Shown piece by piece: positions 2,756 through 33,716 of a stretch of DNA of 34,968 nt. The position numbers were made by a program, and so were the translations under genes. The first letter of the stretch is position 1. Every line of letters starts with the position of its first letter. The notes under the pieces are model-generated. The model ran no database searches. It was not told the origin of the DNA and saw nothing but the letters and a program-made list of their open reading frames with translations. The stretch is taken from contig SHWK01000001.1 in NCBI GenBank assembly GCA_009693885.1, forward strand, positions 1 through 34,968. Reading direction: 5' to 3'. This DNA comes from Rickettsiales bacterium (GTDB lineage: Bacteria > Pseudomonadota > Alphaproteobacteria > Rickettsiales > UBA1997).

Positions 2756-3463
2756 ATGCAAAGCTATAATTTGACTATTCTAATATCGCTGATCAATCTC
2801 GGTTTTTTTGGCGGCTTCACCCATTGCAGCGGAATGTGCGGCCCCTTTGTGCTGACACAAGTTTCAAATCGCTTGCAAAATATTTCTCTGGCACAATTTT
2901 CGCGTTTTGAAAAATTACGCAGCATGGCTTTATTGCCTTATCATTGTGGCAGAATCACTACTTATATATGTATTGGATTTTTTTGCTCTCTCATCACTAA
3001 AAATCTTCAAGAGATTGACGGTTTTAATATTATCAGCGGATTACTGCTTTTATTTGCCGCTGCATTTTTCTTGCAAAATCTCTTCGGTAGAAAAATATTT
3101 AAATTTAATTTTCGATTACCATTTCACTTGCCAAAAATTAAAAATCCGTCAATATTAAAAAAACTTTTTCAAAACCCTTATGGTTTTAATGGATTTTTAT
3201 TAGGAATAATCTTAGGATTCATTCCCTGCGGTCTGCTTTATGGAGCATTTGCTCTTTCAGCATCAATCGCCAACCCAATGCTTGCAGCGTTAGGAATGTT
3301 CTTGTTCGGAATCATGACTTTTCCGGCCCTCTTCCTTACTGCTTCGGGCGGATATTTTTTCTTGAAACTCACTAAGGTGAATTTCAAACTGATTTCTAAA
3401 ATAATAATGTTAATTAACGCCATAACACTTGGCGTTATGGGTCTCGAACTAATTATAAAATAA
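2756..3463 (+). CDS. DsbD_2/TauE-SafE-like polytopic membrane protein with an HCxGMCGP motif
   Basis: 235 aa with multiple hydrophobic helices. N-terminal [10 protein letters not shown] motif is typical of the PF13386-like proteins often found with cbb3 oxidase maturation genes. Its stop is 2 nt before the ccoN ATG. Confidence 0.7.
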
Positions 3464-3465
3464 CA

Positions 3466-4893
3466 ATGGCATCAAACCAGATATCTCAAGCTCCAGTCGA
3501 TTATAATTACGACATCATCAAACTATTCACTCTAGCCGCCACTTTTTGGGGAATCATCGGATTTTCGGTTGGCGTTCTCATTGCCTCGCAACTAACTTTT
3601 CCACTTTTAAATTTTGATATTGAATGGTTAAGCTTCGGCAGATTGCGCCCTCTGCACACTTCTGCAGTTATTTTTGCCTTTGGTGGAAATGTCCTTTTTG
3701 CTACTAGTTTTTTTGTAGTGCAGCGCACTTGTCAAACAAGACTTTGGGGCCGCGATTCTTTACTTAAATTTATTTTTTGGGGCTACCAATTATTTATAAT
3801 AATGGCCGCGATTGGCTATATTAATGGCGTTACGCAAGCCAAAGAATATGCTGAACCAGAATGGTACGCTGATTTATGGCTAACCATAGTTTGGGTTTGC
3901 TACTTTTTTGTTTTTATTCTCACATTAAAAAATCGTCAAGAGCCGCATATTTATGTGGCCAACTGGTTTTATTTGGCTTTTATTGTTACGGTTGCAATCT
4001 TGCATATTGTTAATAATTTAGCGATTCCTTTGCGTCTTGATTCTACTCATAGTTATTCATTATTTGGTGGTGTACAAAGTGCGATGATCCAATGGTGGTA
4101 TGGTCATAATGCGGTTGGATTTTTTCTTACTGCGGGTTTTATCGGAATTTTATATTATTACATTCCTAAAAGAGCTAATCGCCCAGTTTATTCTTATCGC
4201 CTTTCAATTTTGCATTTTTGGTCTTTGATTTTTATTTATATTTGGGCGGGCCCTCATCACTTGCATTATACTTCTCTGCCTGATTGGGTACAAACTCTTG
4301 GAATGACATTCTCAATCATGCTATGGATGCCATCTTGGGGCGGCATGATCAACGGTATAATGACTCTCTCCGGTGCGTGGCACAAATTGCGCGAAGATCC
4401 AGTATTGCGCTTCTTAATCACTGCCGTCGCTTTCTATGGCATGAGCACTTTTGAAGGTCCATTAATGGCGATCAAATCCGTCAATTCACTATCGCATTAC
4501 ACTGATTGGACAATCGGCCATGTACATTCTGGCGCTCTCGGATGGGTTGCGATGATAAGCTTCGGAGCCCTTTATCATATGGTACCAATCTTGTGGAATA
4601 AAAAAGATCTATACTCAATCAAATGGGTTAGTGTGCATTTTTGGCTCGCCTCAATCGGTATTGTTCTCTACATCACTGCGATGTGGATTTCTGGCATCAT
4701 GCAAGGCCTAATGTGGCGCGCTTATGATGATATGGGATTCCTACAATACTCATTCATTGAAACAGTCGTAGCAACACATCCACTTTATTTAACCAGAGCA
4801 ATCGGAGGAGTATTTTTCCTTAGCGGCGCTTGTTTAATGGCCTATAATTTCTACAAAACAATTCGCTACGCGCCTATTGCGCAAGCAAAATAA
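3466..4893 (+). CDS. ccoN: cbb3-type cytochrome c oxidase subunit I (CcoN/FixN)
   Basis: 475 aa, about 12 TM helices. Heme-copper oxidase His-containing blocks are present ([28 protein letters not shown]), followed directly by ccoO. Confidence 0.95.
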
Positions 4894-4906
4894 GCAAAGT
4901 TTTATT

Positions 4907-5635
4907 ATGTTTAAACACGATAAAATCGAGAAAAGCTCGATACTACTTTTAATATTAACTGTGATCGTAATTTCAATCGGCGGATTAATTGAAATCACGC
5001 CACTTTTTCGTATCGAAACCACAATTGAAAAAGTTGAAGGCATGCGGCCTTATACCCCGCTTGAGCTGGCTGGATCAAAAATCTATAAACGCGAAGGATG
5101 TTATGGCTGCCATTCACAACAAATTCGCGTTTTGCGTGATGAGGTTGAGCGCTATGGTCACTACTCTCTTGCGGCTGAAAGCATGTATGATTTTCCTTTT
5201 CAATGGGGCTCAAAACGCACAGGGCCAGATCTAGCGCGCATCGGTGGCAAATATTCTGATCAATGGCATGTTATGCATTTGGTAAATCCACGCTCAGTTG
5301 TGCCACAATCAATCATGCCGGGTTATAAATTTTTAGTTGAGCGCGATGCTGATATTTCTGGTCTACAAGATGATATTGCCGTGTTACGCAAACTTGGCAC
5401 GCCATATAGTGATGAGATGGAGCAAAACGCCGTCAGTGATGCGGTGCTACAAGCATCAAACGATCGCGACACTTCTGGATTAGAAAAAAGATACGGCAAA
5501 AAAATCAACATCCATGATTTTGATGGCAATCCTGATCGTGTTTCTGAAATGGATGCTCTGGTTGCTTATCTACAAATGCTTGGATCACTAGTTGATTTTT
5601 CAAAATATGAGCCAGCAACAAAAGAGAAAAAATAA
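4907..5635 (+). CDS. ccoO: cbb3-type cytochrome c oxidase subunit II (CcoO/FixO), monoheme
   Basis: The ATG at 4907 gives [11 protein letters not shown] followed by a TM anchor and one CxxCH heme site (CYGCH). The track ORF begins at a TTG at 4877 that overlaps ccoN, so the ATG is preferred. Confidence 0.93.
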
Positions 5636-5781
5636 TGGACTTCATCATCAATAATGCAGCCACAATCGCTACAATATTTTTCTTTATAGCATTTTGTTAC
5701 GCCGTTTTTTATGCCTTTAGCAAAAAGAATAAAAAGCAGTTTGAGGAATCCGCAAAGATTCCTTTAGATGGAGATAGATAG
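5635..5781 (+). CDS. ccoQ: cbb3 oxidase small subunit CcoQ/FixQ (48 aa), below the ORF-track size cutoff
   Basis: Hand translation: [48 protein letters not shown]. It has a single TM helix followed by a basic patch and a FixQ-like 'F-E/D-E-x-A-x-I/L-P-L-D' tail. The ATG overlaps the ccoO TAA as TAATG. Confidence 0.85.
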   Translation: MDFIINNAATIATIFFFIAFCYAVFYAFSKKNKKQFEESAKIPLDGDR

Positions 5782-5860: not shown

Positions 5861-6256
5861 TTAGTTTTGGTTAACAAAAAACTTAATCCGACTCAATTCT
5901 TTACCACAAATAGGATCAACCCTGATCAACTCTTGTTTCCCATCAAAAATCTTAGTCAAAACCATCACAACCCCATCATCTTCTTTGACAGAATCAATAC
6001 CCTGTGCAATATTTATTTTTGTCACTTCAGGGCATTTTGACACTATAGTATTTTGCAACTCTTTATTATGACGCACAATTTCAAACGCCGCTATCGACAC
6101 CACTAAAACTATAAAAAGCGCAAACACCGTTGATTTTAACAAAATCATAGTTTTGCTATATTTTTTTGTTGGTGCTGAAGTGGAATGGTAATGTTTTTCA
6201 TGACTATTGTCGCGACGATCGTGGCTTTGGGTGCTTGATCTTCTATTATTATACAT
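5861..6256 (-). CDS. Hypothetical single-pass membrane protein with a His/Arg-rich N-terminal tail
   Basis: 131 aa. N-terminus is RRSSTQSHDRRDNSHEKHYH, followed by one TM (ILLKSTVFALFIVLVVSIAAF) and a roughly 70-aa soluble domain with 2 Cys. It starts 7 nt downstream of the kbl stop on the same strand. An internal start at MILLK is possible. Confidence 0.55.
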   Translation of the reverse strand: MYNNRRSSTQSHDRRDNSHEKHYHSTSAPTKKYSKTMILLKSTVFALFIVLVVSIAAFEIVRHNKELQNTIVSKCPEVTKINIAQGIDSVKEDDGVVMVLTKIFDGKQELIRVDPICGKELSRIKFFVNQN

Positions 6257-7469: not shown

Positions 7470-7597
7470 TGTGTTGAAAAATATATTGTTAAAAAAATAA
7501 AATTGACTTTCTTGCAGTAGAGCCTAAGTTGATCAGCGCTATAAAAAGCATTACAAACTAAAATAATATAAAATAATAATCAAAAAACAGAATAATT

Positions 7598-7885
7598 ATG
7601 AACAAAAAATTTATTAAATCAATGGTTGCTGCTATTGCAGGTTTAGGCCTTCTTTCTTCTTGCTCTATGATGAGCGGAAAAGATTCTCACAAATGTGGTG
7701 GAAAAAATAGCTGTAAAGGTAAAGGTAAAGCTATAGAAGATTCTAACAAATGTTCCTCTTCTAAAAAAGAAGAAGCTAAAAAAGCAGAATCTAACAATTG
7801 CGGCGCTAAAAATGGCTGTTCTGCAGCTAAAGCTGATGTAGCAAAAACTAGCAAATCTAAAAAATCTACCACTAAAAAGAATTAA
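7598..7885 (+). CDS. Putative RiPP precursor: small secreted or lipid-anchored Cys-containing, Lys-rich peptide (bufferin/HvfA-like candidate)
   Basis: 95 aa: MNKKFIKSMVAAIAGLGLLSSC... with lipobox L-S-S-C (Cys22). The mature part has 5 Cys in repeated contexts SHKCGGKNSCKG / SNKCSS / SNNCGAKNGCSA, then a K/S/T-rich tail. The stop is 5 nt (TTG start) or 14 nt (ATG start) upstream of the DUF692 gene. Confidence 0.7.
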   Translation: MNKKFIKSMVAAIAGLGLLSSCSMMSGKDSHKCGGKNSCKGKGKAIEDSNKCSSSKKEEAKKAESNNCGAKNGCSAAKADVAKTSKSKKSTTKKN

Positions 7886-7890
7886 TTTTT

Positions 7891-8787
7891 TTGATTCAAA
7901 TGAAGTTAGCAAAAAGTCCAACCTCCTCAAATCTTGTCGGGGTTGGGCTTCGCTCTCCACATATTCCTTATATTCTCAAAAATCACCAAAAAGTTTCACA
8001 AAAAATTGGATGGTTCGAAGTTCATAGTGAGAATTATTATAATACTCTATCCTCTTCATCAGCAACCCTTCTTCAGGTTAGAAAAGATTTTCATATCAGC
8101 CTACATTCAGTTGGAAATTCTCTCGGATCAGCACAAAAAATTGATCTAAATCATCTTACTAAACTTAAGCAATTAATTGAAGTTATTGATCCATTTTTAG
8201 TTTCTGATCATATTTCTTGGGGCTTAATTGATGGAAAGCACTCAAATGATTTATTACCCCTACCCTACAGCAAAGAGGCTGTAAAAACCCTGTCAGACAA
8301 TATCTCTATAATGCAAGATTTTCTAGGGAGAGAAATTTTAATTGAAAATCCATCAACTTATTTAGCTTATAAACATTCTGAAATGAGCGAAGTTGATTTT
8401 ATTAATATCGTTACAAAAAAAACTGGCTGTAAATTGCTACTCGATATAAATAATATTTATGTTAGTGCACAAAATAATGCGCAATTTGATCCAATAGATT
8501 ATCTTAATCAAGTCGATAAAAAAATTGTCAAAGAAATTCACTTAGCTGGGCATTCCAAAGTGCAAATTTTTGATGGTAAAAAACATCAACAAATTTTGAT
8601 TGATACCCATAATGATTTAGTTTGCGATGAGGTGTGGAGCCTTTATAATCATGCCGTTAAAAGACTTGGCAAAATTCCAACTTTATTAGAATGGGATCAA
8701 GATATTCCAGAATTTAAAGTTTTTGTTAGCGAGGCTAAAAAAGCTAAAAAAATTCTCTTTAACGGATCAATAAAAAAACCGACCTAA
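7891..8787 (+). CDS. DUF692/UPF0276 multinuclear non-heme iron oxidase (MNIO; MbnB/HvfB/BufB-like)
   Basis: 298 aa. Family blocks appear in order: VGVGLRSPH, WFEVHSENYY, HSVGNSLGS, VSDHISWG, LIENPSTY, LLLDINNIYVS, EIHLAGHS, LIDTHND, PTLLEWD. The track start is a TTG at 7891; the ATG at 7900 is an equally plausible start. Confidence 0.9.
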   Translation: MIQMKLAKSPTSSNLVGVGLRSPHIPYILKNHQKVSQKIGWFEVHSENYYNTLSSSSATLLQVRKDFHISLHSVGNSLGSAQKIDLNHLTKLKQLIEVIDPFLVSDHISWGLIDGKHSNDLLPLPYSKEAVKTLSDNISIMQDFLGREILIENPSTYLAYKHSEMSEVDFINIVTKKTGCKLLLDINNIYVSAQNNAQFDPIDYLNQVDKKIVKEIHLAGHSKVQIFDGKKHQQILIDTHNDLVCDEVWSLYNHAVKRLGKIPTLLEWDQDIPEFKVFVSEAKKAKKILFNGSIKKPT

Positions 8788-9554
8788 TGGATCCTAAAAA
8801 CTCAATAACATTATTAGATCTACAACAAGAGTTTTTTGCCCATTTATATGATGATAAAAAACTAAAAATTACCGACTCTCTTGTTCCTTATTCTAACCTT
8901 GAAGCTCTAGCGCGCTTAAATATTTATCGTAATAATGTTTTTGGCAATTTTTCCTCTGTTTTATCTGCGATTTTTAATGTGACTAATAAGATTGTTGGTG
9001 ATGAAAAATTTTCTGCTTTTGTTGAGCAATATATAAAATCTTATTATTCACATAGCGGAAATCTTGATGAATATGGTGAGTTTTTCCCACAATTTCTAAA
9101 TAAAATATTAAGAAAACATAAATTAAGCTATTTATCAGACCTTGCTACGCTTGAATTAGCTCATTATAAAACTTTTTTTGCTGAAAAAATCAAGGATGAA
9201 TTTCCTCTAAAAAAGTTTAAAAAAATATCTCCAGAACATTTTTCAAATCTAGCATTCGCTCTTCATCCATCATGTGTTTTATTTTCTTCAAAATTTCCAA
9301 TTTATTCAATTTGGAATAAGGCAAAAAAATCTAGCAGCAAAAAAGCAGAATTTATACTAGTGGCCAATAGCATGCAACCATTGGTTACAGAGCTATCTGA
9401 AACTGAATTTTTATTTTTAATTGAAATTGGTGAGGGTAAAAAACTTTATCAAGTCTATCAAAAAATTTGTAAAAAAATAAAAAAAGAAGTTGATATAGGA
9501 AAGATATTGAATCACTTTATTACAACTAGAATAATTATTGATTTTTCAACATAA
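8787..9554 (+). CDS. DUF2063 protein (HvfC/BufC-like MNIO partner, putative precursor-recognition subunit)
   Basis: 255 aa. The N-terminal DUF2063 pattern is present: LQQEFFAHL...LARLNIYRNNVFGNFSSVL...VGDEKFSAFVEQYI...SGNLDEYGEFFPQFL. Its ATG overlaps the MNIO stop (TAATG). Confidence 0.85.
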   Translation: MDPKNSITLLDLQQEFFAHLYDDKKLKITDSLVPYSNLEALARLNIYRNNVFGNFSSVLSAIFNVTNKIVGDEKFSAFVEQYIKSYYSHSGNLDEYGEFFPQFLNKILRKHKLSYLSDLATLELAHYKTFFAEKIKDEFPLKKFKKISPEHFSNLAFALHPSCVLFSSKFPIYSIWNKAKKSSSKKAEFILVANSMQPLVTELSETEFLFLIEIGEGKKLYQVYQKICKKIKKEVDIGKILNHFITTRIIIDFST

Positions 9555-9566
9555 TTAACTTTAAGA

Positions 9567-10556
9567 ATGGCAAAAAATATAGCCGAATTCTCTATTATTG
9601 ATGAATTTTTTAAACCACTAACAAACTCTGTTGCAGCTGCGCAGAACTTGGCTGATGATGTAGCAAAAATTTCCTTAAAAAAAGGAGAAGACTTGGTTAT
9701 CAGCAAAGATATGATTGTTGAAGATGTTCATTTTTTAAGAAAAGATGGCGGATTTAAAATTGCCTCCAAGTTGTTGCGATCCAATCTTTCTGATATTGCT
9801 GCCGCTGGCGCAAAGCCAATTTATTACATGTTAGGATTCTCTAAAGATAATAAAATGGATAAATCTTTTTTTACAGAATTCGCTCGCGGTCTTAAAGAAT
9901 CACAAGATGAATTTGGCATTTCTTTAATTGGTGGTGATACAGTAAAAACATCTAGCAAATTGTTTTTTTCAATAACAATTCTTGGTATAGTTAAAGAAAA
10001 TCAAAATTTATTGCGTAAAAATGGCAAAAAAGATGATATAGTTTTTGTTTCAGGAAATATTGGCGACGCCGCTATAGGGCTAATGTTGGCACGAGGTTCA
10101 AAACTTGATTTGATCGCTGACGAAAAAAAATATTTTTTAGCACGGCACTTTTTTCCAACTCCAAGAATCAAACTAGGACAATCCCTCGCCTCACAGAATC
10201 TCTCGCACTGCGCTATTGATGTTTCTGACGGTCTATTGGCTGATTTACAGCATATTTGCGAAGAATCAAATCTATCAGCATTTATTTATCAAAGCAGAAT
10301 TCCTCTTACAATTACAAAAAAAACTTTACCTAAGAGCATTTCTCCACTTGATTTAATTAGTGCTGGAGACGATTATGAGTTAATCTTTACAGCGAAAAAA
10401 TCTGCTGAAAAAAAGATTTTACGGTTAGCAAAAACTTTAAAAATAAAAATCACTGCCATTGGCTATTTAAAAAATGCCACAAAAAAACCGACTGTCACGA
10501 TACTTGATAACAGTGATAAGCCAATAAATTTTTCTAAATATGGCTACCAGCATTAA
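9567..10556 (+). CDS. thiL: Thiamine-monophosphate kinase
   Basis: 329 aa. PurM-like ThiL pattern: EFSIIDEFF...DDVAKI...VISKDMIVEDVHF, SDIAAAGAKP, LIGGDT, VSGNIGDAA, AIDVSDGLLADL, GDDYELIFT. Confidence 0.9.
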   Translation: MAKNIAEFSIIDEFFKPLTNSVAAAQNLADDVAKISLKKGEDLVISKDMIVEDVHFLRKDGGFKIASKLLRSNLSDIAAAGAKPIYYMLGFSKDNKMDKSFFTEFARGLKESQDEFGISLIGGDTVKTSSKLFFSITILGIVKENQNLLRKNGKKDDIVFVSGNIGDAAIGLMLARGSKLDLIADEKKYFLARHFFPTPRIKLGQSLASQNLSHCAIDVSDGLLADLQHICEESNLSAFIYQSRIPLTITKKTLPKSISPLDLISAGDDYELIFTAKKSAEKKILRLAKTLKIKITAIGYLKNATKKPTVTILDNSDKPINFSKYGYQH

Positions 10557-11187
10557 TGATGTAGAATATGTCAGCTCCTTTAAAAGAAGCACTGCAATTT
10601 CAATTGATATGATGATTGTAATGTTTTTTAGAATTGTTATAGCGCAACTTCTTGGAGTTCTGTGGATTAACAATACTATTGCAAAATTTATAGCAGATTT
10701 TCACGAACATTTTGGCACTGAAGTGATCAAAAATAATCCAGAACATATTGAATATATCATCCATCATTTCGCTTTTCGTGAAATGTTATTTTTTTATTTT
10801 ATCATACTATCAATTGGCTTGGTTTATCACGCTTACCTCAATTCTTCAGCTTGGCAAGCCACTATTGGCAAAAGAGTCATGAATATCCAAATTGTAAAAG
10901 CAAATCATCTAAAAATTGGCTTCGGCACAGCAGTCCTTCACTATATTTTATCGATACTGCCAATTATTTATATTATTTATATTTTTGTATTCTTGGTAAA
11001 TAATAACTTAACATTATTCCATGCCATTACCCATACACCATTTAATATATTCTTTGGATTTTTATCTATTATGTGGATTCAAATTCATAGCTTTACCAAA
11101 AGAAAAACCACTATGTATGATCTAATATGTAAGGTAGTTTTTATTCATGGAAAAGTAGATACAAAATTACCTTGGAGCAAGATTTAA
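10540..11187 (+). CDS. RDD-family integral membrane protein
   Basis: 215 aa. N-terminal F-K-R-x-x-A-x-x-ID-x-x-I pattern and a later GKRVMNIQIV block flanked by TM helices, as in RDD domains. It overlaps the thiL end by 17 nt. Confidence 0.6.
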   Translation: MATSINDVEYVSSFKRSTAISIDMMIVMFFRIVIAQLLGVLWINNTIAKFIADFHEHFGTEVIKNNPEHIEYIIHHFAFREMLFFYFIILSIGLVYHAYLNSSAWQATIGKRVMNIQIVKANHLKIGFGTAVLHYILSILPIIYIIYIFVFLVNNNLTLFHAITHTPFNIFFGFLSIMWIQIHSFTKRKTTMYDLICKVVFIHGKVDTKLPWSKI

Positions 11188-11199
11188 TATTTGTGATAA

Positions 11200-14199
11200 A
11201 TGTCAAATAAAAAACATACCAATCATGAGGAAGCCAATTACAACAAGGCTTCCCGTCTTCATGTCAAAAAAAATAAAATTAGTTTATTCTATAAAATAAA
11301 CTTTTTTGTTATACTTTTTATTTCATTGATCTTGCTTTATTTTATAATTTTAGTTTCAGCAAAACCAAAATCTTTTCCCTACATTACCAAAAAAGTTGAA
11401 ACATATCTTCAAGAAAACTTCGGCAAAGATATTGCAATCGATAGCTCTTATATTGGCTTCACAAAATATGGAAGCTTCAAAATTTCAGTTAATAATTTAA
11501 AAATTAACAAATTAAATGATGATGGCACTAGTCAAGAATTTGAGATACCTGTTATTGAGGGAGAGCTGCCTTTATATAATGTTATATTGCTAAATTTTAC
11601 TCCAAGTAAAATAAAAGTTATCGATCCAACAATTATTTTTCATCCCTCTAGCAACACCACATTAGATAAGGCGGCTAGCGACCCGCAAAACCCACTGATT
11701 TATTCTGCGCCATTAATTAGTTTTTTATCGGCAATCAAAAATGATAGACTTCTAATTAAAATTTTTGAAATGCAGAATCTAAAATTTATTATTAGAAAAG
11801 AAAATAAATCTGATACCGAAATATTTCTCAAAGAATCTCGTATTAAAGTTGAATCAAAAAATAGATTTTCTAATGAGGCTTTACAAATTTCATCAGTAAA
11901 CATTGTAAGCTTTAACCATGGTTCTGACATTCATTTAAACGCAAATTGTAAATTTAATGCGCAAGATAGCACTCTTTGCGCTCTCGCCTTATCAAATTTA
12001 TCAACTGGGTCAATTGCCAGTTTAAACCCCGCTTTAGCTGCTATTTATCAAGTCAATACATCGATAAACGCTACCGCAACTCTCATAATAAAAAACCAAC
12101 AAATTCACGGCCTCTCTTTTAAAGCTCAAGCCAAAAATGGTTATTTTGATTTACCTGAATTTTTTAGTAAAAAAATTAATTTCTCAAATTTAATATTAAG
12201 TGGCGATTATAATAATGATCTTGATGTTCTTAATTTATCATCTATCGAAGCTGATCTTGATGCGGATAAAAATAATCAAAGCACAATAAAAGAAAAACAC
12301 TTATTGATGTCACTTTATGTTACTAATTTACAGAGTACTCAGAATAAAAAATCAAATTTTGATATTAGGCTATCAAATGTTCCAACCAATCAAATAGAGG
12401 GCTTTTGGCCAATTTCTATTCCTGGTCAAGATATAAGAAAATGGGTAGTTGCACATATTAGTGATGGAAAAATTGAAAATGCATTTGCAAAATTTTCTCT
12501 ATCAACAATAGCTGGAGTTACCAATCTTGATAGAATTGATTCGCAAATTTCCTTCACTAATTTAAGCCTAAATTATAATGAATATTTCCCAAAAATTACT
12601 GCTCTAAAAGGAATGGCAGTATTTACAAAAAATCAAATGAATATTGCTATTGCAGGCGCCGATGTATTGGGCAGCAAAATTTATGATGCTAATGTTGCAA
12701 TCGACGATTTTAGCTCCCCAATCACAATATTAAATATTGCTGGAAACCTTTCTGGCAATGCTGCAGATGGTATAAAGCATGCTGATTATAAATCATCTTT
12801 TGCCGCAGAAATAGAAAAATATTTCAATGGAAGCGCCGTTGGAAATTTCACTATTAAAATTCCTCTACAAGAAACAGTTGCCCTAAAAGATATTTATATT
12901 TTAGCCAATGAAAAAATAGAAAATCTTAATAATGTTTATGTAAAAGGTGCCATCGCTGTAAATTCTGTTAAAAACTTCAATAGCAACAGCTTTATTACCT
13001 CAATTGATTTAACAGCTGCTACCTTGGAATTTAAGGCATTTGATATTGATAAAAAACTATCAATCCCCAGTGGAATTAATTTTTCTTTTATTGTTTCTGA
13101 CGATGATAATATTCAATTAAAAAATATTAATTTGTGGAAAAAAGATAATATTATTGAAAATAAAAAATCAATAATTGCTGAAGCAAAGCTATCTGGCGAT
13201 ATATCATTTGGAACCGCTCCATTCATACTTACAGCTCTTAATTTAAAAAATCAAAACTTTGGCAAAAATAATTATTCTTTTTCCTACCAAAATAATGAGA
13301 AACAAAAATCACAAACAATTTCTGTTAGTGGAAAAATTTTAAATTTAGCCGCCTTCCTTCAAAACAAACTACCATTTACCAGCTCTTCAAATGATGCGGG
13401 AAGGATCTCTCTTAAGGTTGCTATAGATAAGGTGCTATTGGTTAATAAAAAATATCTCAACAAGTTGTATCTATCATTAAATTATGTTAATGGAATTTTT
13501 TACAACAGCACTATCAAAACCAACTATAGCAAACAACAAAGCCTTAATTTATATACCACTGAGCGCAAACCAAAAGAAAATTTTACAACTATTATAGGCG
13601 CAGTTACTGATGTTGGATATCTGGCTGAGGGCTTAAATATTTCAGATACAATTTTTGGAGGAAGTGCAAAAATTAAAATCACCAATCAAATAACCAACAC
13701 TTTGCCAACCTTTATTGGTGAGGTTAAAATTGATAATGATATAACTTTCTATGAAAACAATATCACTAAACTCTTAGCAAAAAATACACTTTTTTCTACC
13801 ATTAAAGATACGATTTTTTCTAATAATAAAACTATTTTTAATACAGTGAAGCTCAATTTTACCTTTAGCAAAATGAACCTTCAGATAGATTCATTTATAG
13901 CGAATAATTACAAAATTGGCGTTACAGCTAAGGGATTAATAAATCTTTCTGATAATACTTATGATATTAAAGGAATGATTATTCCTGGATTTGTAATTAA
14001 CAATCTTTTTGGAATTGGAAAAATTCCTTTGATTGGCGGAGTAATTAGTGGCATATTTACTGGCGGCGAAGGCGGTGGATTGTTTGGAATCAAATATGAA
14101 TATAAAAAATTAGATCCTAAAAGAGAAGCTACATTCGAAACCAACAAAGTAAGCGCCTTTGTGCCAGTTAGTATTAGAAATTTATTTGATGGGATTTAA
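11200..14199 (+). CDS. Large AsmA-like/YhdP-like (DUF3971-type) envelope protein, N-terminally membrane-anchored
   Basis: 999 aa with one N-terminal TM (FFVILFISLILLYFIILV). The body is long and beta-rich, N/S/I-rich. The Gly-rich C-terminal segment (PLIGGVISGIFTGGEGGGLFGIKYEYKK) resembles AsmA-like C-terminal regions. Assignment rests on architecture, not alignment. Confidence 0.55.
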   Translation: MSNKKHTNHEEANYNKASRLHVKKNKISLFYKINFFVILFISLILLYFIILVSAKPKSFPYITKKVETYLQENFGKDIAIDSSYIGFTKYGSFKISVNNLKINKLNDDGTSQEFEIPVIEGELPLYNVILLNFTPSKIKVIDPTIIFHPSSNTTLDKAASDPQNPLIYSAPLISFLSAIKNDRLLIKIFEMQNLKFIIRKENKSDTEIFLKESRIKVESKNRFSNEALQISSVNIVSFNHGSDIHLNANCKFNAQDSTLCALALSNLSTGSIASLNPALAAIYQVNTSINATATLIIKNQQIHGLSFKAQAKNGYFDLPEFFSKKINFSNLILSGDYNNDLDVLNLSSIEADLDADKNNQSTIKEKHLLMSLYVTNLQSTQNKKSNFDIRLSNVPTNQIEGFWPISIPGQDIRKWVVAHISDGKIENAFAKFSLSTIAGVTNLDRIDSQISFTNLSLNYNEYFPKITALKGMAVFTKNQMNIAIAGADVLGSKIYDANVAIDDFSSPITILNIAGNLSGNAADGIKHADYKSSFAAEIEKYFNGSAVGNFTIKIPLQETVALKDIYILANEKIENLNNVYVKGAIAVNSVKNFNSNSFITSIDLTAATLEFKAFDIDKKLSIPSGINFSFIVSDDDNIQLKNINLWKKDNIIENKKSIIAEAKLSGDISFGTAPFILTALNLKNQNFGKNNYSFSYQNNEKQKSQTISVSGKILNLAAFLQNKLPFTSSSNDAGRISLKVAIDKVLLVNKKYLNKLYLSLNYVNGIFYNSTIKTNYSKQQSLNLYTTERKPKENFTTIIGAVTDVGYLAEGLNISDTIFGGSAKIKITNQITNTLPTFIGEVKIDNDITFYENNITKLLAKNTLFSTIKDTIFSNNKTIFNTVKLNFTFSKMNLQIDSFIANNYKIGVTAKGLINLSDNTYDIKGMIIPGFVINNLFGIGKIPLIGGVISGIFTGGEGGGLFGIKYEYKKLDPKREATFETNKVSAFVPVSIRNLFDGI

Positions 14200-30731: not shown

Positions 30732-32201
30732 ATGATCAACAGTTTTCCTATTTTATCGTTAATTACTTTTTTGCCAATTGCAGCCGCGATTTTATTGCTG
30801 CCATTAAAAAGCAAAAATTATAAAAATTTTTATTATTTTGGACTTTTAATTAGCTTAGTTACTTTTGTATTATCAATTAAGTTACTCTTTTCTTTTGATA
30901 AATCCAGCGCTGATTTTCAATTCGTAGAAATCTTTAGAATCCTAGAAGGTAAAGCCTTCCAATACCATATGGGAATCGATGGAATTTCAATTTTATTGAT
31001 TATTCTTACCACTTTTTTAATACCTATTTGTTTAGCAATTAGCATTAATTCTATAACCAATCGCGTTAAAGAATATGTGATCTGCTTCTTGCTGCTAGAA
31101 GGCTTCACCATTGGTTCGTTTTGTGCAATAGATCTATTATTATTCTATGTTTTATTCGAAGCGATGTTGATCCCAATGTTTTTAATAATTGGCATTTGGG
31201 GCGGCCAGCAAAGGATCTACGCCTCTTACAAATTTTTTCTTTATACACTTTTTGGATCAGTTTTATTTTTGGTTGCCATTATCTATATATATGTAACAAC
31301 TGGCTCAACCGATATTAATGTTCTCAAAGATCTATTGCCGCAGCTTGTTTTAGAGCATCAAAAATGGCTCTGGTTGGCTTTCTTTGTATCTTTTGCCATC
31401 AAAGTGCCAATGTTTCCATTTCACACTTGGCTTCCCGATGCCCATGTGCAGGCTCCTACCGCTGGTTCAGTAATTTTAGCGGGGATTTTAATCAAGATTG
31501 GAGCCTACGCAATGCTGCGTTTCTCTTTGCCATTTTTTCCGCAAGCATCTGAATATTTTGCTAATTTAGTTTTTGCTTTAAGTATTATTGCTATAATTTA
31601 TGCATCTTTGGTTGCCTTGATGCAAGAAGATATGAAGAAGATGATTGCCTACTCTTCCGTGGCTCACATGGGTTTTGTAACAATGGGGATTTTCAGTTTT
31701 ACTCGCCAAGGAATCGATGGCGCAGTTATGCAAATGATTAGTCACGGCTTGGTTTCTGCGGCATTATTCATGTGCGTTGGTGTAATTTACGAACGCCTGC
31801 ACACCAAGCAAATAGGCGATCTAGGTGGCATCGTACAAAAAATGCCCAACTTTGCTTTATTAGCGATGATCTTCACCATGGGTTCAGTTGGGTTGCCAGG
31901 AACCAGCGGTTTCGTTGGTGAATTTTTAGCAATAATCGGAACATTCCAAGCTAACAAAATCGTTGCAATCCTTTCAACCATTGGCGTAGTGCTTGGAGCT
32001 TGTTACATGCTGTGGCTTTACAAACGCGTTTTATTCGGTGAAATCACCAATGCTAAAATCGAAAAATTACATGATTTAAACGCGATAGAATTAATTTCAC
32101 TAAGTGCCATCGCCTTACTTGTAGTATTGTTCGGTATCATGCCAAATTTGCTTTTAAGCTATTTTGCACAACCAGTAATTTTGTTAGTTGCTTTGTTTTA
32201 A
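30732..32201 (+). CDS. nuoM: NADH-quinone oxidoreductase subunit M
   Basis: 489 aa, about 14 TM. Blocks: GIDGISILLIILT, FYVLFEAMLIPMFLIIGIWGG, KVPMFPFHTWLPDAHVQAPTAGSVILAGILIK, IAYSSVAHMGF. Confidence 0.93.
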   Translation: MINSFPILSLITFLPIAAAILLLPLKSKNYKNFYYFGLLISLVTFVLSIKLLFSFDKSSADFQFVEIFRILEGKAFQYHMGIDGISILLIILTTFLIPICLAISINSITNRVKEYVICFLLLEGFTIGSFCAIDLLLFYVLFEAMLIPMFLIIGIWGGQQRIYASYKFFLYTLFGSVLFLVAIIYIYVTTGSTDINVLKDLLPQLVLEHQKWLWLAFFVSFAIKVPMFPFHTWLPDAHVQAPTAGSVILAGILIKIGAYAMLRFSLPFFPQASEYFANLVFALSIIAIIYASLVALMQEDMKKMIAYSSVAHMGFVTMGIFSFTRQGIDGAVMQMISHGLVSAALFMCVGVIYERLHTKQIGDLGGIVQKMPNFALLAMIFTMGSVGLPGTSGFVGEFLAIIGTFQANKIVAILSTIGVVLGACYMLWLYKRVLFGEITNAKIEKLHDLNAIELISLSAIALLVVLFGIMPNLLLSYFAQPVILLVALF

Positions 32202-32246
32202 CTTATAAATTTTTTTAAATAAAATTTTAACCAACATTAAACAGCC

Positions 32247-33716
32247 ATGTTTTTACCAGCACTATATCCAGAATTAGCTCTATTTTGTGGCGCATTAATC
32301 ATCTTGATGAGTGATGTTTTTTTTGCTAAAAACAAGCCAGAATTTTTTCGCGCTTCTTACTTAATAGCACTACTTTCATGCCTAGCCTCCCTATATTTTA
32401 CAGCACATAATACATTTATCGTGGGATCTTTTTTTCATGGCATGTTTTTTATTAATTCATTCACTTGTTTTATAAAATTTGTTACGGTTATTTTATTAAT
32501 TTTTGTAATTATTTTGTCATTAGGATTTCTCGCTAAAGAAAAAGAAATCAGCGCTGAATTTCTTGCTTTATTAATGATATCAACTTGCGGTGGAATGTTC
32601 TTAATTTCTGCTAATGATTTTTTAACATTCTATTTAAGCTTAGAGCTACAAGCATTGCCGCTATATTTATTAGCATCAATGAACCGCAAATCTGGCAAAT
32701 CTTCAGAGAGTGGAATGAAATATTTTATTCTTGGATCAGTAGCTTCTGGTCTACTACTTCTAGGAATTTCATTATTTTATGGATTTTCAGGAACAACAAA
32801 TTTTGATGTAGCAACCTATCTTTACAGCGCTAATCCAGTGCCTCCAGCAGTTATTCTAGGGTTCTTACTAATCATTATTGCAATGTTTTTCAAAATATCT
32901 GCCGCACCTTTTCATATGTGGACACCCGATGTTTATGAAGGCTCCAACACAATCGTTACAACTTTTTTTGCTACTGTCACAAAATTTATTGCAACCATGG
33001 TTTTATTGCGCTTATTTCTTGATTTATCACCAAGTTGGCTCGGGATGGAAAAGGTCTTAATCCTTGTAGCCATCACTTCAATGGCCGTTGGAAGTTTTGG
33101 CGCGATCAAACAAAATAACATCAAGCGTCTATTAGCTTATAGCTCGATTGGCCATGTCGGCTTTGTAGTTTTTGCCCTTTCGGCTCTAAGCCCCGATGGC
33201 ATCAAAGCTTGCGTTATTTATATGCTAATTTACGCAGTTCTATCCCTTGGAAATTTCGGATTTTTAAATTTAATTCTCGGATTAAAAAATAGCACTCAGG
33301 CTTCTGGCGCTTGCGATGAATCTGATAATAAAATTTTTAATATTTCTTCTTTTTCTGGTCTAGCTAAAACCAATCCATTGATGGCAGCTTTTCTAACAAT
33401 TCTGATGTTTTCAACTGCAGGAATTCCACCACTGGCAGGGTTTTTCTCAAAATTTTATGTTATCGCCGCTACCGTAAAATCAGGCTATTACATCACTTCA
33501 ATTATCGCCGTTTTATTTAGCGTAATTAGCGCTTTCTACTATTTGCGATTAGTAAAAGTTATGTATTTTGATGATGTCAAAGAAGATCAACAGCTAGTAT
33601 TTATCGATAGATTTAATCCAAAGCTCGTTATTGCCTTTGTTATAGCTTTTAACTTGATCTTTCTTGCCTTTATGAAGCCTTTGATTACAACGGTAGAATC
33701 TATGTTAGGATTTTAA
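32247..33716 (+). CDS. nuoN: NADH-quinone oxidoreductase subunit N
   Basis: 489 aa polytopic protein. Blocks: LSLELQALPLY, ESGMKYFILGSVASG, KISAAPFHMWTPDVYEG, LLAYSSIGHVGF. It immediately follows nuoM. Confidence 0.92.
   Translation: MFLPALYPELALFCGALIILMSDVFFAKNKPEFFRASYLIALLSCLASLYFTAHNTFIVGSFFHGMFFINSFTCFIKFVTVILLIFVIILSLGFLAKEKEISAEFLALLMISTCGGMFLISANDFLTFYLSLELQALPLYLLASMNRKSGKSSESGMKYFILGSVASGLLLLGISLFYGFSGTTNFDVATYLYSANPVPPAVILGFLLIIIAMFFKISAAPFHMWTPDVYEGSNTIVTTFFATVTKFIATMVLLRLFLDLSPSWLGMEKVLILVAITSMAVGSFGAIKQNNIKRLLAYSSIGHVGFVVFALSALSPDGIKACVIYMLIYAVLSLGNFGFLNLILGLKNSTQASGACDESDNKIFNISSFSGLAKTNPLMAAFLTILMFSTAGIPPLAGFFSKFYVIAATVKSGYYITSIIAVLFSVISAFYYLRLVKVMYFDDVKEDQQLVFIDRFNPKLVIAFVIAFNLIFLAFMKPLITTVESMLGF

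Follow-up and report, generated by a model that had tools for sequence, protein, structure and literature searches.

The window analysed here, a stretch of 34,968 nucleotides, is a contig of a metagenome-assembled genome (MAG) named 'Rickettsiales bacterium' in NCBI, with a GC content of about 28-41%. On its + strand, between positions 7598 and 9554, three intact and co-directional open reading frames (ORFs) encode a Cys-containing peptide (locus tag EXR06_00050), a DUF692-family multinuclear non-heme iron oxidase (MNIO), and a DUF2063 protein, which is the core order precursor-MNIO-DUF2063 of a bufferin biosynthetic gene cluster (BGC). This cassette is probably a reduced bufferin (captophorin) operon of the bufA-like/bufB/bufC type, situated in a housekeeping region of the Rickettsiales-labelled MAG. 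An earlier inspection of the letters alone (the sequence-only reading) had proposed a cassette of the bufferin/Hvf kind for a peptide that is made on ribosomes and modified after translation (RiPP), and that proposal is supported by the BufB equivalog score, the intact metal ligands, and the PME-type 1 fold of the partner protein. All three ORFs were recovered where it had placed them, together with their tight packing: the peptide stop lies 5 nt before a TTG at 7891 and 14 nt before the ATG at 7900, and the MNIO stop overlaps the ATG of the DUF2063 gene as TAATG. The public gene calls for the same contig start the MNIO at ATG 7900, giving 295 amino acids (aa).

The BufB-type enzyme and its BufC-type partner

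The MNIO matches PF05114 with an E-value of 1e-94 and 317.2 bits (cut-off 25) over profile positions 2-261 of 263. It also passes NF050167, the NCBIfam equivalog model of the MNIO family bufferin maturase BufB, with 337.5 bits against a cut-off of 310; the MNIOs of its relatives score 340-386 bits on this model, and those located next to DUF2282 or BufA2 precursors in the comparison loci match it as well. The NCBIfam models for MbnB, ApyH, and ChrH are failed, and the HvfB equivalog NF003818 yields 217.6 bits, below its cut-off of 360. The hidden Markov model (HMM) scores suggest that the enzyme falls outside the HvfB clade. Where the sequence-only reading had left the clade of the enzyme to be settled, a neighbour-joining tree, computed without bootstrap support values, agrees with the BufB score by nesting it within the BufA1-associated BufB proteins.

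In MbnB, the iron ligands are H54, H90, E133, D163, N166, H192, D208, H210, and E239 (PMC9060507). With residues of the window MNIO counted from ATG 7900, seven of these map via the alignment to 7TCR onto H104, E149, D182, N185, H214, D235, and H237. The structural homologue 3BWW matches the MNIO at E 4e-37, and H69 (in 'HSVG') and E264 (in 'LEWD') are conserved in this alignment. We take these two residues to be the counterparts of MbnB His54 and Glu239, an equation less rigorous than that of the other seven. On these alignments, all nine MbnB-type iron-ligand positions are conserved. The eight family motifs listed by the sequence-only reading are all present in the protein; their description as metal-ligand blocks holds for the nine positions but probably not for the His of EVHSEN, where 3BWW carries Ala. 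A loss of iron ligands on alignment had been named in advance as a sign against RiPP chemistry, and no such loss was seen. Homology places the protein among the BufB-type multinuclear non-heme iron oxidases, with no ligand missing from the set, and its dN/dS of about 0.15 corresponds to purifying selection.

The partner protein matches PF09836 (E 4.7e-22, 78.5 bits, cut-off 27.2), so that the HMM searches returned both Pfam families expected from the sequence-only reading. Its best NCBIfam match is a weak but full-length one to the HvfC equivalog NF050145, at 56.3 bits and below the cut-off of 142; the matches included no model specific to BufC. The AlphaFold2 model, built with a 69-sequence alignment, has a pLDDT (predicted local distance difference test) score of 93.5 and comprises a helical N-terminal domain and a C-terminal strand/helix domain of the beta3/alpha3 type (residues 156-254). 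In Foldseek, this model matches TglI (8HI7_A, E 1.4e-4) and NGO1945 (3DEE, E 4.7e-4), both with a probability of 1.00, and more weakly the RiPP recognition element (RRE) protein TbiB1 with a probability of 0.96; a sequence search of the PDB, whether with the single sequence or with the 69-sequence profile, did not find 3DEE, whereas the fold comparison did. The predicted architecture is that of PME-type 1 proteins, DUF2063 plus an RRE-like fold, as described for BufC and HvfC (PMC11626156, PMC12452194, PMC13097082), and the DUF2063 assignment of the sequence-only reading stands. The dN/dS of this gene, about 0.17, likewise indicates purifying selection.

The HvfC match bears on an alternative in which the cassette is an Hvf/oxazolin-type system, with an HvfB-class MNIO acting on Lys-Cys repeats like those of EGKCG peptides. 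The [HN]-K-C-[SAG] repeats of the peptide family do resemble the 'Lys-Cys' precursor group (PMC13097082), and HvfC is the closest NCBIfam model for the DUF2063 protein. The HvfC score is nevertheless only 56 bits, the MNIO stays far below the HvfB cut-off while passing that of BufB, direct reading of the 95-aa peptide finds no EGKCG repeat, and the nearest outgroup MNIOs are all DUF2282-associated. We regard an Hvf-type system as very unlikely.

The lipopeptide and its relation to BufA1

The 95-aa peptide is the sole signal-bearing, Cys-rich small ORF of the window. Its signal comprises residues 1-21, with K3, K4, and K7, an h-region at 8-19, and the lipobox L-S-S-C ending in Cys22. By pattern matching only, the window peptide fits the lipobox pattern [LVI][ASTVI][GAS]C, and a slightly wider pattern picks out 116 of the 120 family members, its Cys being residue 22 in almost all of them. 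The peptide thus carries, as judged from its residues, a lipoprotein (SPII-type) signal; the export signal claimed by the sequence-only reading is there, but it is not a plain Sec signal. The mature part contains His31 and five further Cys, arranged as C33-GGKNS-C39, NK-C52-SS, and C68-GAKNG-C74, followed by a Lys-rich C-terminal tail. AlphaFold2 with 105 homologues predicts only a helix at residues 3-23, the remainder having pLDDT values under 50, and the mature peptide is probably disordered.

A word-indexed profile search collected a peptide family of 120 clusters at 90% identity, and an exhaustive HMMER search retrieved 68 representatives at E<=1e-3 among 1.84 billion sequences. The members are all metagenomic; those with names are 'hypothetical proteins' from Rickettsiales or Pseudomonadota MAGs. 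Nearly all begin with M-[NK]-K-x-F-[IL]-[KQ]-S, and most possess a C-[GSAN]-[AGS]-(K)-N-[GSKT]-C unit, of CX5C or CX4C spacing, and a variable number of [HN]-K-C-[SA] repeats. The window peptide has the CX5C unit twice, and CX4C occurs in a subset of its relatives. The gene is judged to be real rather than a chance ORF, because it is conserved beside the MNIO in 15 distinct loci and shows a dN/dS of 0.2-0.55, a purifying selection less strict than that on BufB and BufC. Comparison with LptM-like and other known small lipoproteins in Pfam and NCBIfam returned only low-complexity and signal-peptide noise.

No Pfam or NCBIfam model, PF10048 (DUF2282) included, matches the window peptide, and the BufA2 model NF050166 gives nothing even at E<=10. 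Among the 105 family members, seven match the BufA2 model below its threshold (60 bits; best E 1.2e-4), where Planctomycetota controls score 50-65 bits, and PF10048 is not among the 25 families that these members match most. The likeness to BufA2 stays at the level of the motif CxGKNxCKG. The link to BufA1 was seen only with full-length precursors from the same lineage: an exhaustive search with the family profile retrieves two DUF2282/BufA1 precursors (P0258 and P0260) at E-values of 2e-4 and 4e-4 for the whole library of 1.84e9 sequences. In the alignment, the signal peptide (KFLQS...AS[C/T]S) and then Cys I, Cys II, and Cys III correspond colinearly. After Cys I the lipopeptide has a 5-residue gap opposite 'YGVVK' of BufA1; around Cys II, 'GAKNGC' faces 'AGKNDC', and around Cys III, 'AAKKxEAHKC' faces 'ASAKKGGHSC'. 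An 8-residue signal pattern that we defined post hoc, [LFIVM][LIVF][KQ][ST]xxx[GC] (x being small or hydrophobic), is present in 94 of the 120 lipopeptides and in 30 of 1867 background ORFs, 29 of which are themselves BufA1 or lipopeptide precursors.

From these alignments, we assign the peptide family a remote homology to the N-terminal half of BufA1. It can be counted loosely among the superfamily of bufferin precursors, and a BufA1 gene is its most probable source. The statement of the sequence-only reading that the precursor is neither DUF2282 nor EGKCG-like is therefore right as far as model matches go and incomplete with regard to ancestry. On over-expression, the BufA1 signal peptide was dispensable (PMC11626156); preliminary evidence in a later paper makes the signal peptide part of the recognition sequence (PMC12452194).

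Locus evolution and surroundings of the cassette

A scan of the genome collection with the MNIO gave 74 loci, to which look-ups with peptide homologues added further ones. The nine closest loci have MNIO identities of 59-88%, plus L009 with 56%, and the labels of their MAGs are Rickettsia, Rickettsiales, Pelagibacterales, Rhizobium or Pseudomonadota. Loci of 42-47% identity follow as the next tier; they come from Gamma- and Betaproteobacteria with DUF2282 precursors upstream, and four Planctomycetota loci (L069-L072) carry lipobox-bearing BufA2 repeats. The order peptide-MNIO-PME1 is kept in 15 distinct loci, with kbl pointing away on the upstream side and thiL following downstream, and the run from the peptide gene through thiL to the RDD gene is conserved in relatives (Table 1). 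In three basal loci, a DUF2282/BufA1 gene stands directly before the lipopeptide gene (L009:3389-3976, L077:6697-7183, and L082:5639-6192), and the two tandem peptides have near-identical signal starts, MNKKTF[IL]SSV versus MKKTFLKSV. The adjacency of BufC and thiL is kept even there, and DoxX is present in the basal relatives L077, L081, and L082. In the neighbour-joining tree, the lipopeptide-associated MNIOs form one clade, with the loci that combine BufA1, lipopeptide, and DoxX at its base.

Table 1 Features of the cassette region in the window and gene orders at related loci.
Feature or gene order	Position in the window, or loci	Strand	Evidence or remark
Candidate promoter region	7474..7545	+	Cross-locus conservation, upstream of peptide gene
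Precursor-like lipopeptide gene, 95 aa	7598..7885	+	ORF, homologue family
BufB-type MNIO (DUF692), 295 aa	7900..8787 (alternative TTG 7891)	+	PF05114, NF050167
BufC-type partner (PME-type 1), 255 aa	8787..9554	+	PF09836, AlphaFold2 fold
thiL and RDD-family gene	9567..11187	+	TIGR01379, PF06271
BufA1-lipopeptide-BufB-BufC-DoxX-thiL	L077, L082 (L009 without DoxX)
Lipopeptide-BufB-BufC-DoxX	L081		VirB8/CagX genes nearby
kbl (<-), lipopeptide-BufB-BufC-thiL-RDD	Window, L001-L004, L006, L007, L078, L079, L083
BufB-BufC-thiL	L005		No peptide ORF in 161-bp gap
kbl (<-), lipopeptide-thiL-RDD-LpxC	L080, L084/L085, L086		No MNIO/PME1

The simplest history that these gene orders suggest starts from an ancestral operon BufA1-lipopeptide-BufB-BufC-DoxX next to thiL. 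The second precursor-like gene gained by this Buf1 operon would probably be a bufA1 duplicate, and in the clade of the window the loss of BufA1 and DoxX would then have left the lipopeptide as the sole adjacent substrate. At L081, VirB8 and CagX/VirB9-like type IV secretion genes (L081:1-1866) lie about 4 kb from the lipopeptide-BufB-BufC-DoxX cluster, consistent with a Rickettsiales-like host.

Several observations weigh against the lipopeptide as a BufA1-derived substrate of the adjacent enzymes. The signal peptide contributes about 20 of the 37 bits that link it to BufA1, and the core about 12; the mature cores compared by hhalign give non-significant probabilities of 0.3% (BufA1) and 4.9% (BufA2); the shared signal pattern, as said, is post hoc; and the window peptide matches no curated precursor model. 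At least one family member, P0251, retains the signal peptide and lipobox with no mature Cys, and cannot be an MNIO substrate of the usual type. In the basal loci, a bona fide BufA1 upstream means that the lipopeptide need not be the substrate. At L005, the 161-bp gap upstream of BufB-BufC (L005:3822-3982) has no peptide ORF on the + strand. Conversely, the lipopeptide persists between kbl and thiL at L080:7001-7261, L084:2408-2665, L085:168-425, and L086:878-1153, with its lipobox and the Cys motifs CN[ST]NSC and NKCSS repeats, and no MNIO or DUF2063 gene is found at that spot. These MNIO-less loci look as if both enzyme genes had been precisely excised. The sequence-only reading had offered relatives without an adjacent Cys peptide as grounds for abandoning its proposal; this ground applies in part, with L005 as such a case and the MNIO-less sublineage as its converse.

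These points could be accommodated if the lipopeptide were an ordinary small envelope lipoprotein, for example a thiol/His metal binder or a polycationic one, that is independent of the MNIO and merely syntenic with it, while BufB-BufC act on a precursor encoded elsewhere or are being lost. Such an explanation draws on the sublineage that keeps the peptide, its Cys motifs, and its promoter between kbl and thiL in the absence of MNIO and PME1 there, on the enzymes of L005 without a peptide, and on the true BufA1 upstream in basal loci; moreover, non-RiPP lipoproteins are known within bufferin clusters (PMC13056109) and orphan bufferin precursors are common (PMC12452194). It is countered by the bufA position of the peptide directly before bufB in 15 loci and by its homology to BufA1 across the signal peptide and Cys I-III. 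BufB and BufC, moreover, remain constrained (dN/dS about 0.15-0.17), with all ligands intact in at least 10 loci that offer no adjacent candidate besides the lipopeptide, and BufA1 is absent from the 35-kb window. On balance, an MNIO-independent lipoprotein appears unlikely, and the reduced bufferin operon is preferred.

A more specific version of this preferred reading, which we put forward as a possibility somewhat on the doubtful side, is that the lipopeptide family represents a naturally minimised, membrane-anchored BufA1 descendant keeping only the signal recognition motif and Cys I-III. If this were true, the loci would form an evolutionary series, from tandem BufA1 and lipopeptide with DoxX, through the lipopeptide as the one substrate, to enzymes without peptide and peptide without enzymes. 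The family would then define the minimal BufBC substrate, and would exemplify a RiPP precursor that can also serve, through reversion or in a second role, as a metal-binding lipoprotein that relies on unmodified thiols.

Decay could be invoked as well, with the cassette as a non-functional remnant in a streamlined genome, given the loss of BufA1 and DoxX from the ancestral operon and of either the peptide or the enzymes in related lineages. The three ORFs are nevertheless intact, the nine ligand positions are kept, each of the three genes has a dN/dS well under 1, conservation extends to the promoter elements, and the arrangement persists over MNIO identities from 88% down to 59%. A remnant is accordingly highly improbable. 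The promoter elements in question are TTGAC (-35-like, about 7503-7508) and, after some 16 nt, TAAGTT (-10-like), located before the peptide gene. When the intergenic regions between kbl and the peptide gene are aligned for 10 loci, MNIO-less loci included, TTGAC is invariant and TAAGTT conserved, and this conservation makes them candidate promoter elements; a generic scan gave a separate promoter match at 7474-7503, and the counts of generic sigma-70 promoter and terminator scans were not above those of shuffled sequences. No palindromic operator is evident in the same intergenic region of the ten loci. This would point to constitutive expression of the sigma-70 type and away from control by SigF/NrsF as in the Caulobacter buf operons.

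The thiL gene begins 12 nt after the cassette and overlaps the RDD gene by 17 nt, and on the + strand between 7885 and 10765 no terminator-like site was found. Since the genes are tightly packed with no terminator between them, thiL and the RDD gene are probably co-transcribed with the cassette, and the peptide gene would head an operon that also holds these housekeeping genes, which lie outside the biosynthesis. Including a 999-aa YhdP-like gene after them, the genes at 9567-14199 are separated by 12-nt gaps or joined by 17-nt overlaps. The neighbours are otherwise housekeeping genes, with ccoN/ccoO/FixQ and kbl upstream and thiL, RDD, YhdP-like, surA, ctpA, ispG, mlaA/C, mnmE, asd, pyrH, tsf, and rpsB downstream. 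No mobile-element genes were seen in the surroundings of the cassette, and a plasmid search with the cassette DNA gave no match and no sign of mobility.

Other parts of the window deserve brief mention. At 2756-5780, the cbb3-type oxidase genes ccoN, ccoO, and a FixQ-like one of 48 aa come after a DsbD_2-family membrane protein gene; ccoP is not adjacent to them. Genes for a copper enzyme thereby lie some 2 kb away from the cassette with its putative role in copper buffering, an observation of proximity only. On the opposite strand, a 131-aa ORF (5861-6256), whose polar N-terminus is rich in His, Arg, and Ser and which has a single hydrophobic segment, has no Pfam match and is kept beside kbl in L001, L002, L004, L006, and L007. 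At 30732-33716, two paralogous genes of the Proton_antipo_M family, both of 489 aa, lie side by side; a gene of this family adjoins DabA in L079, and the pair in the window may belong to a DAB-type CO2-uptake system or to an Mrp/Nuo module.

Proposed maturation and relation to known systems

By analogy with characterised relatives, BufB and BufC would bind the precursor in the cytoplasm, probably recognising it in part via the signal motif F-[IL]-[KQ]-S-x-x-x-G that is common to BufA1. With O2, they would convert selected Cys to 5-thiooxazoles, each with a mass change of -4 Da. The best candidate sites are Cys39 and Cys52, because they are homologous to Cys II and III of BufA1, whose central Cys are the targets of post-translational modification (PTM; PMC12452194); Cys74 of the second CGAKNGC unit is a further possible site. 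BufBC are necessary and sufficient for thiooxazole formation in Caulobacter, with export by Sec (PMC11626156), and the missing DoxX poses no problem for the window cassette because DoxX is dispensable for the PTM there. MNIO-PME1 pairs broadly install 5-thiooxazole (PMC13097082); for BufB-type chemistry this product, rather than an oxazolone or thioamide, is now the expected one (PMC11626156, PMC13097082).

The peptide would then be exported by Sec, after which Lgt would attach a diacylglyceryl group to its Cys22, LspA would cleave it, and Lnt would add the N-acyl chain. It may stay tethered to a membrane facing the periplasm. The Ser at position +2 would speak against inner-membrane retention under E. 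coli rules. Lipidation of an MNIO RiPP has experimental precedent in NedA (PMC13056109), and lipoprotein signals have been predicted in bufferins (PMC13056109, PMC12452194). Once in the periplasm, the thiooxazoles, perhaps together with His31, may chelate and buffer copper.

Among the closest known systems is bufferin 1 of Caulobacter vibrioides (BufA1/DUF2282, BufB1, BufC1, and BufD1-DoxX; PMC11626156). The window shares with it the A-B-C order, a BufB-model MNIO, a partner of DUF2063 plus an RRE-like domain, an N-terminal export signal on the precursor, a signal motif and Cys I-III colinear with BufA1, and an enzyme whose nearest outgroup MNIOs are BufA1-associated. Unlike BufA1, the window peptide fails PF10048 and lacks the C-terminal beta-sheet half with Cys IV, so that the Cys I-IV disulfide is impossible; it is predicted to be disordered instead of a folded mini-protein, a lipobox takes the place of the SPase I site, the CX5C unit is duplicated, and the tail is rich in Lys. 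The operon also differs in lacking DoxX and the SigF/NrsF regulators, and in its probable co-transcription with thiL.

With BufA2 and the Buf_6/12Cys family (NF050166), the window peptide shares the local motif C-x-G-K-N-x-C-K-G. Lipoprotein signals occur in the BufA2 family too, for example in the Planctomycetota loci L069-L072, and in about 16% of Buf2 (PMC12452194). In contrast to BufA2, however, the peptide has no 6-Cys domain and its MNIO groups with BufA1-type enzymes in the tree. The RiPP-lipoproteins DybA and NedA (PMC13056109) have the same SPII-signal leader on an MNIO-modified precursor and the same expected route, with cytoplasmic modification followed by Lgt/LspA/Lnt processing; DybA differs in its ChrH-type MNIO and its macrocycle/hydantoin, and NedA in its EGKCG repeats and HvfB-type enzyme. 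The oxazolin, fontiphorin, and gonophorin systems HvfABC/FonABC ('captophorins'; PMC11252979, PMC13097082) likewise place an MNIO and a PME1 on a Cys-rich exported peptide, and their disordered Lys-Cys repeat cores bind copper, but the window MNIO misses the HvfB model and its peptide is without the EGKCG repeat. Compared by description, 'Cluster X' (PMC13056109) comprises uncharacterised CxxxxC peptides with lipoprotein signals, where the window peptide is CX5C and some relatives CX4C; the 'CxxxxC' precursor family (PMC12452194) was also compared by description only.

Against this background, the 'candidate new system' of the sequence-only reading was an overstatement. Bufferins are the largest MNIO RiPP family (PMC11626156), more than 24,000 MNIO-PME1 loci have been unified as 'captophorins' (PMC13097082), and hundreds of unclassified signal-peptide Cys ORFs lie upstream of such MNIOs (PMC12452194). 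Rickettsiales are called depleted in the main text of one survey, whose supplementary information counts five Rickettsiales BGCs (PMC13097082), and a co-occurrence table in a published supplement lists zero MNIO in complete Rickettsiales genomes. The window thus holds an ordinary BufB/BufC pair, and unclassified precursors, lipidated members, and the five Rickettsiales BGCs had already been published. No new enzyme, chemistry or organising principle is involved; the bufferin/captophorin literature of 2024-2026 covers these. The window peptide sequence was not matched in the supplements of published surveys, the files of the PMC13056109 preprint included, and as far as we searched the literature, there is no description of this precursor family, of its probable descent from BufA1, or of the series of reductions in this lineage. 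What is unusual is limited to a short, putatively membrane-anchored, and probably disordered precursor found only in Rickettsiales-labelled environmental genomes.

If modified as predicted, the peptide would be a very small, disordered, and lipid-anchored bufferin, and with that a handy minimal substrate for the study of what BufB-BufC recognise, namely the signal motif plus a C-x5-C...H-K-C segment. Modification would also bring thiooxazole metallophores into a Rickettsiales-like lineage whose genomes are small and AT-rich, in an order reported as depleted of them. The retention of the cassette within a tightly packed housekeeping region suggests selection for copper buffering even in small genomes.

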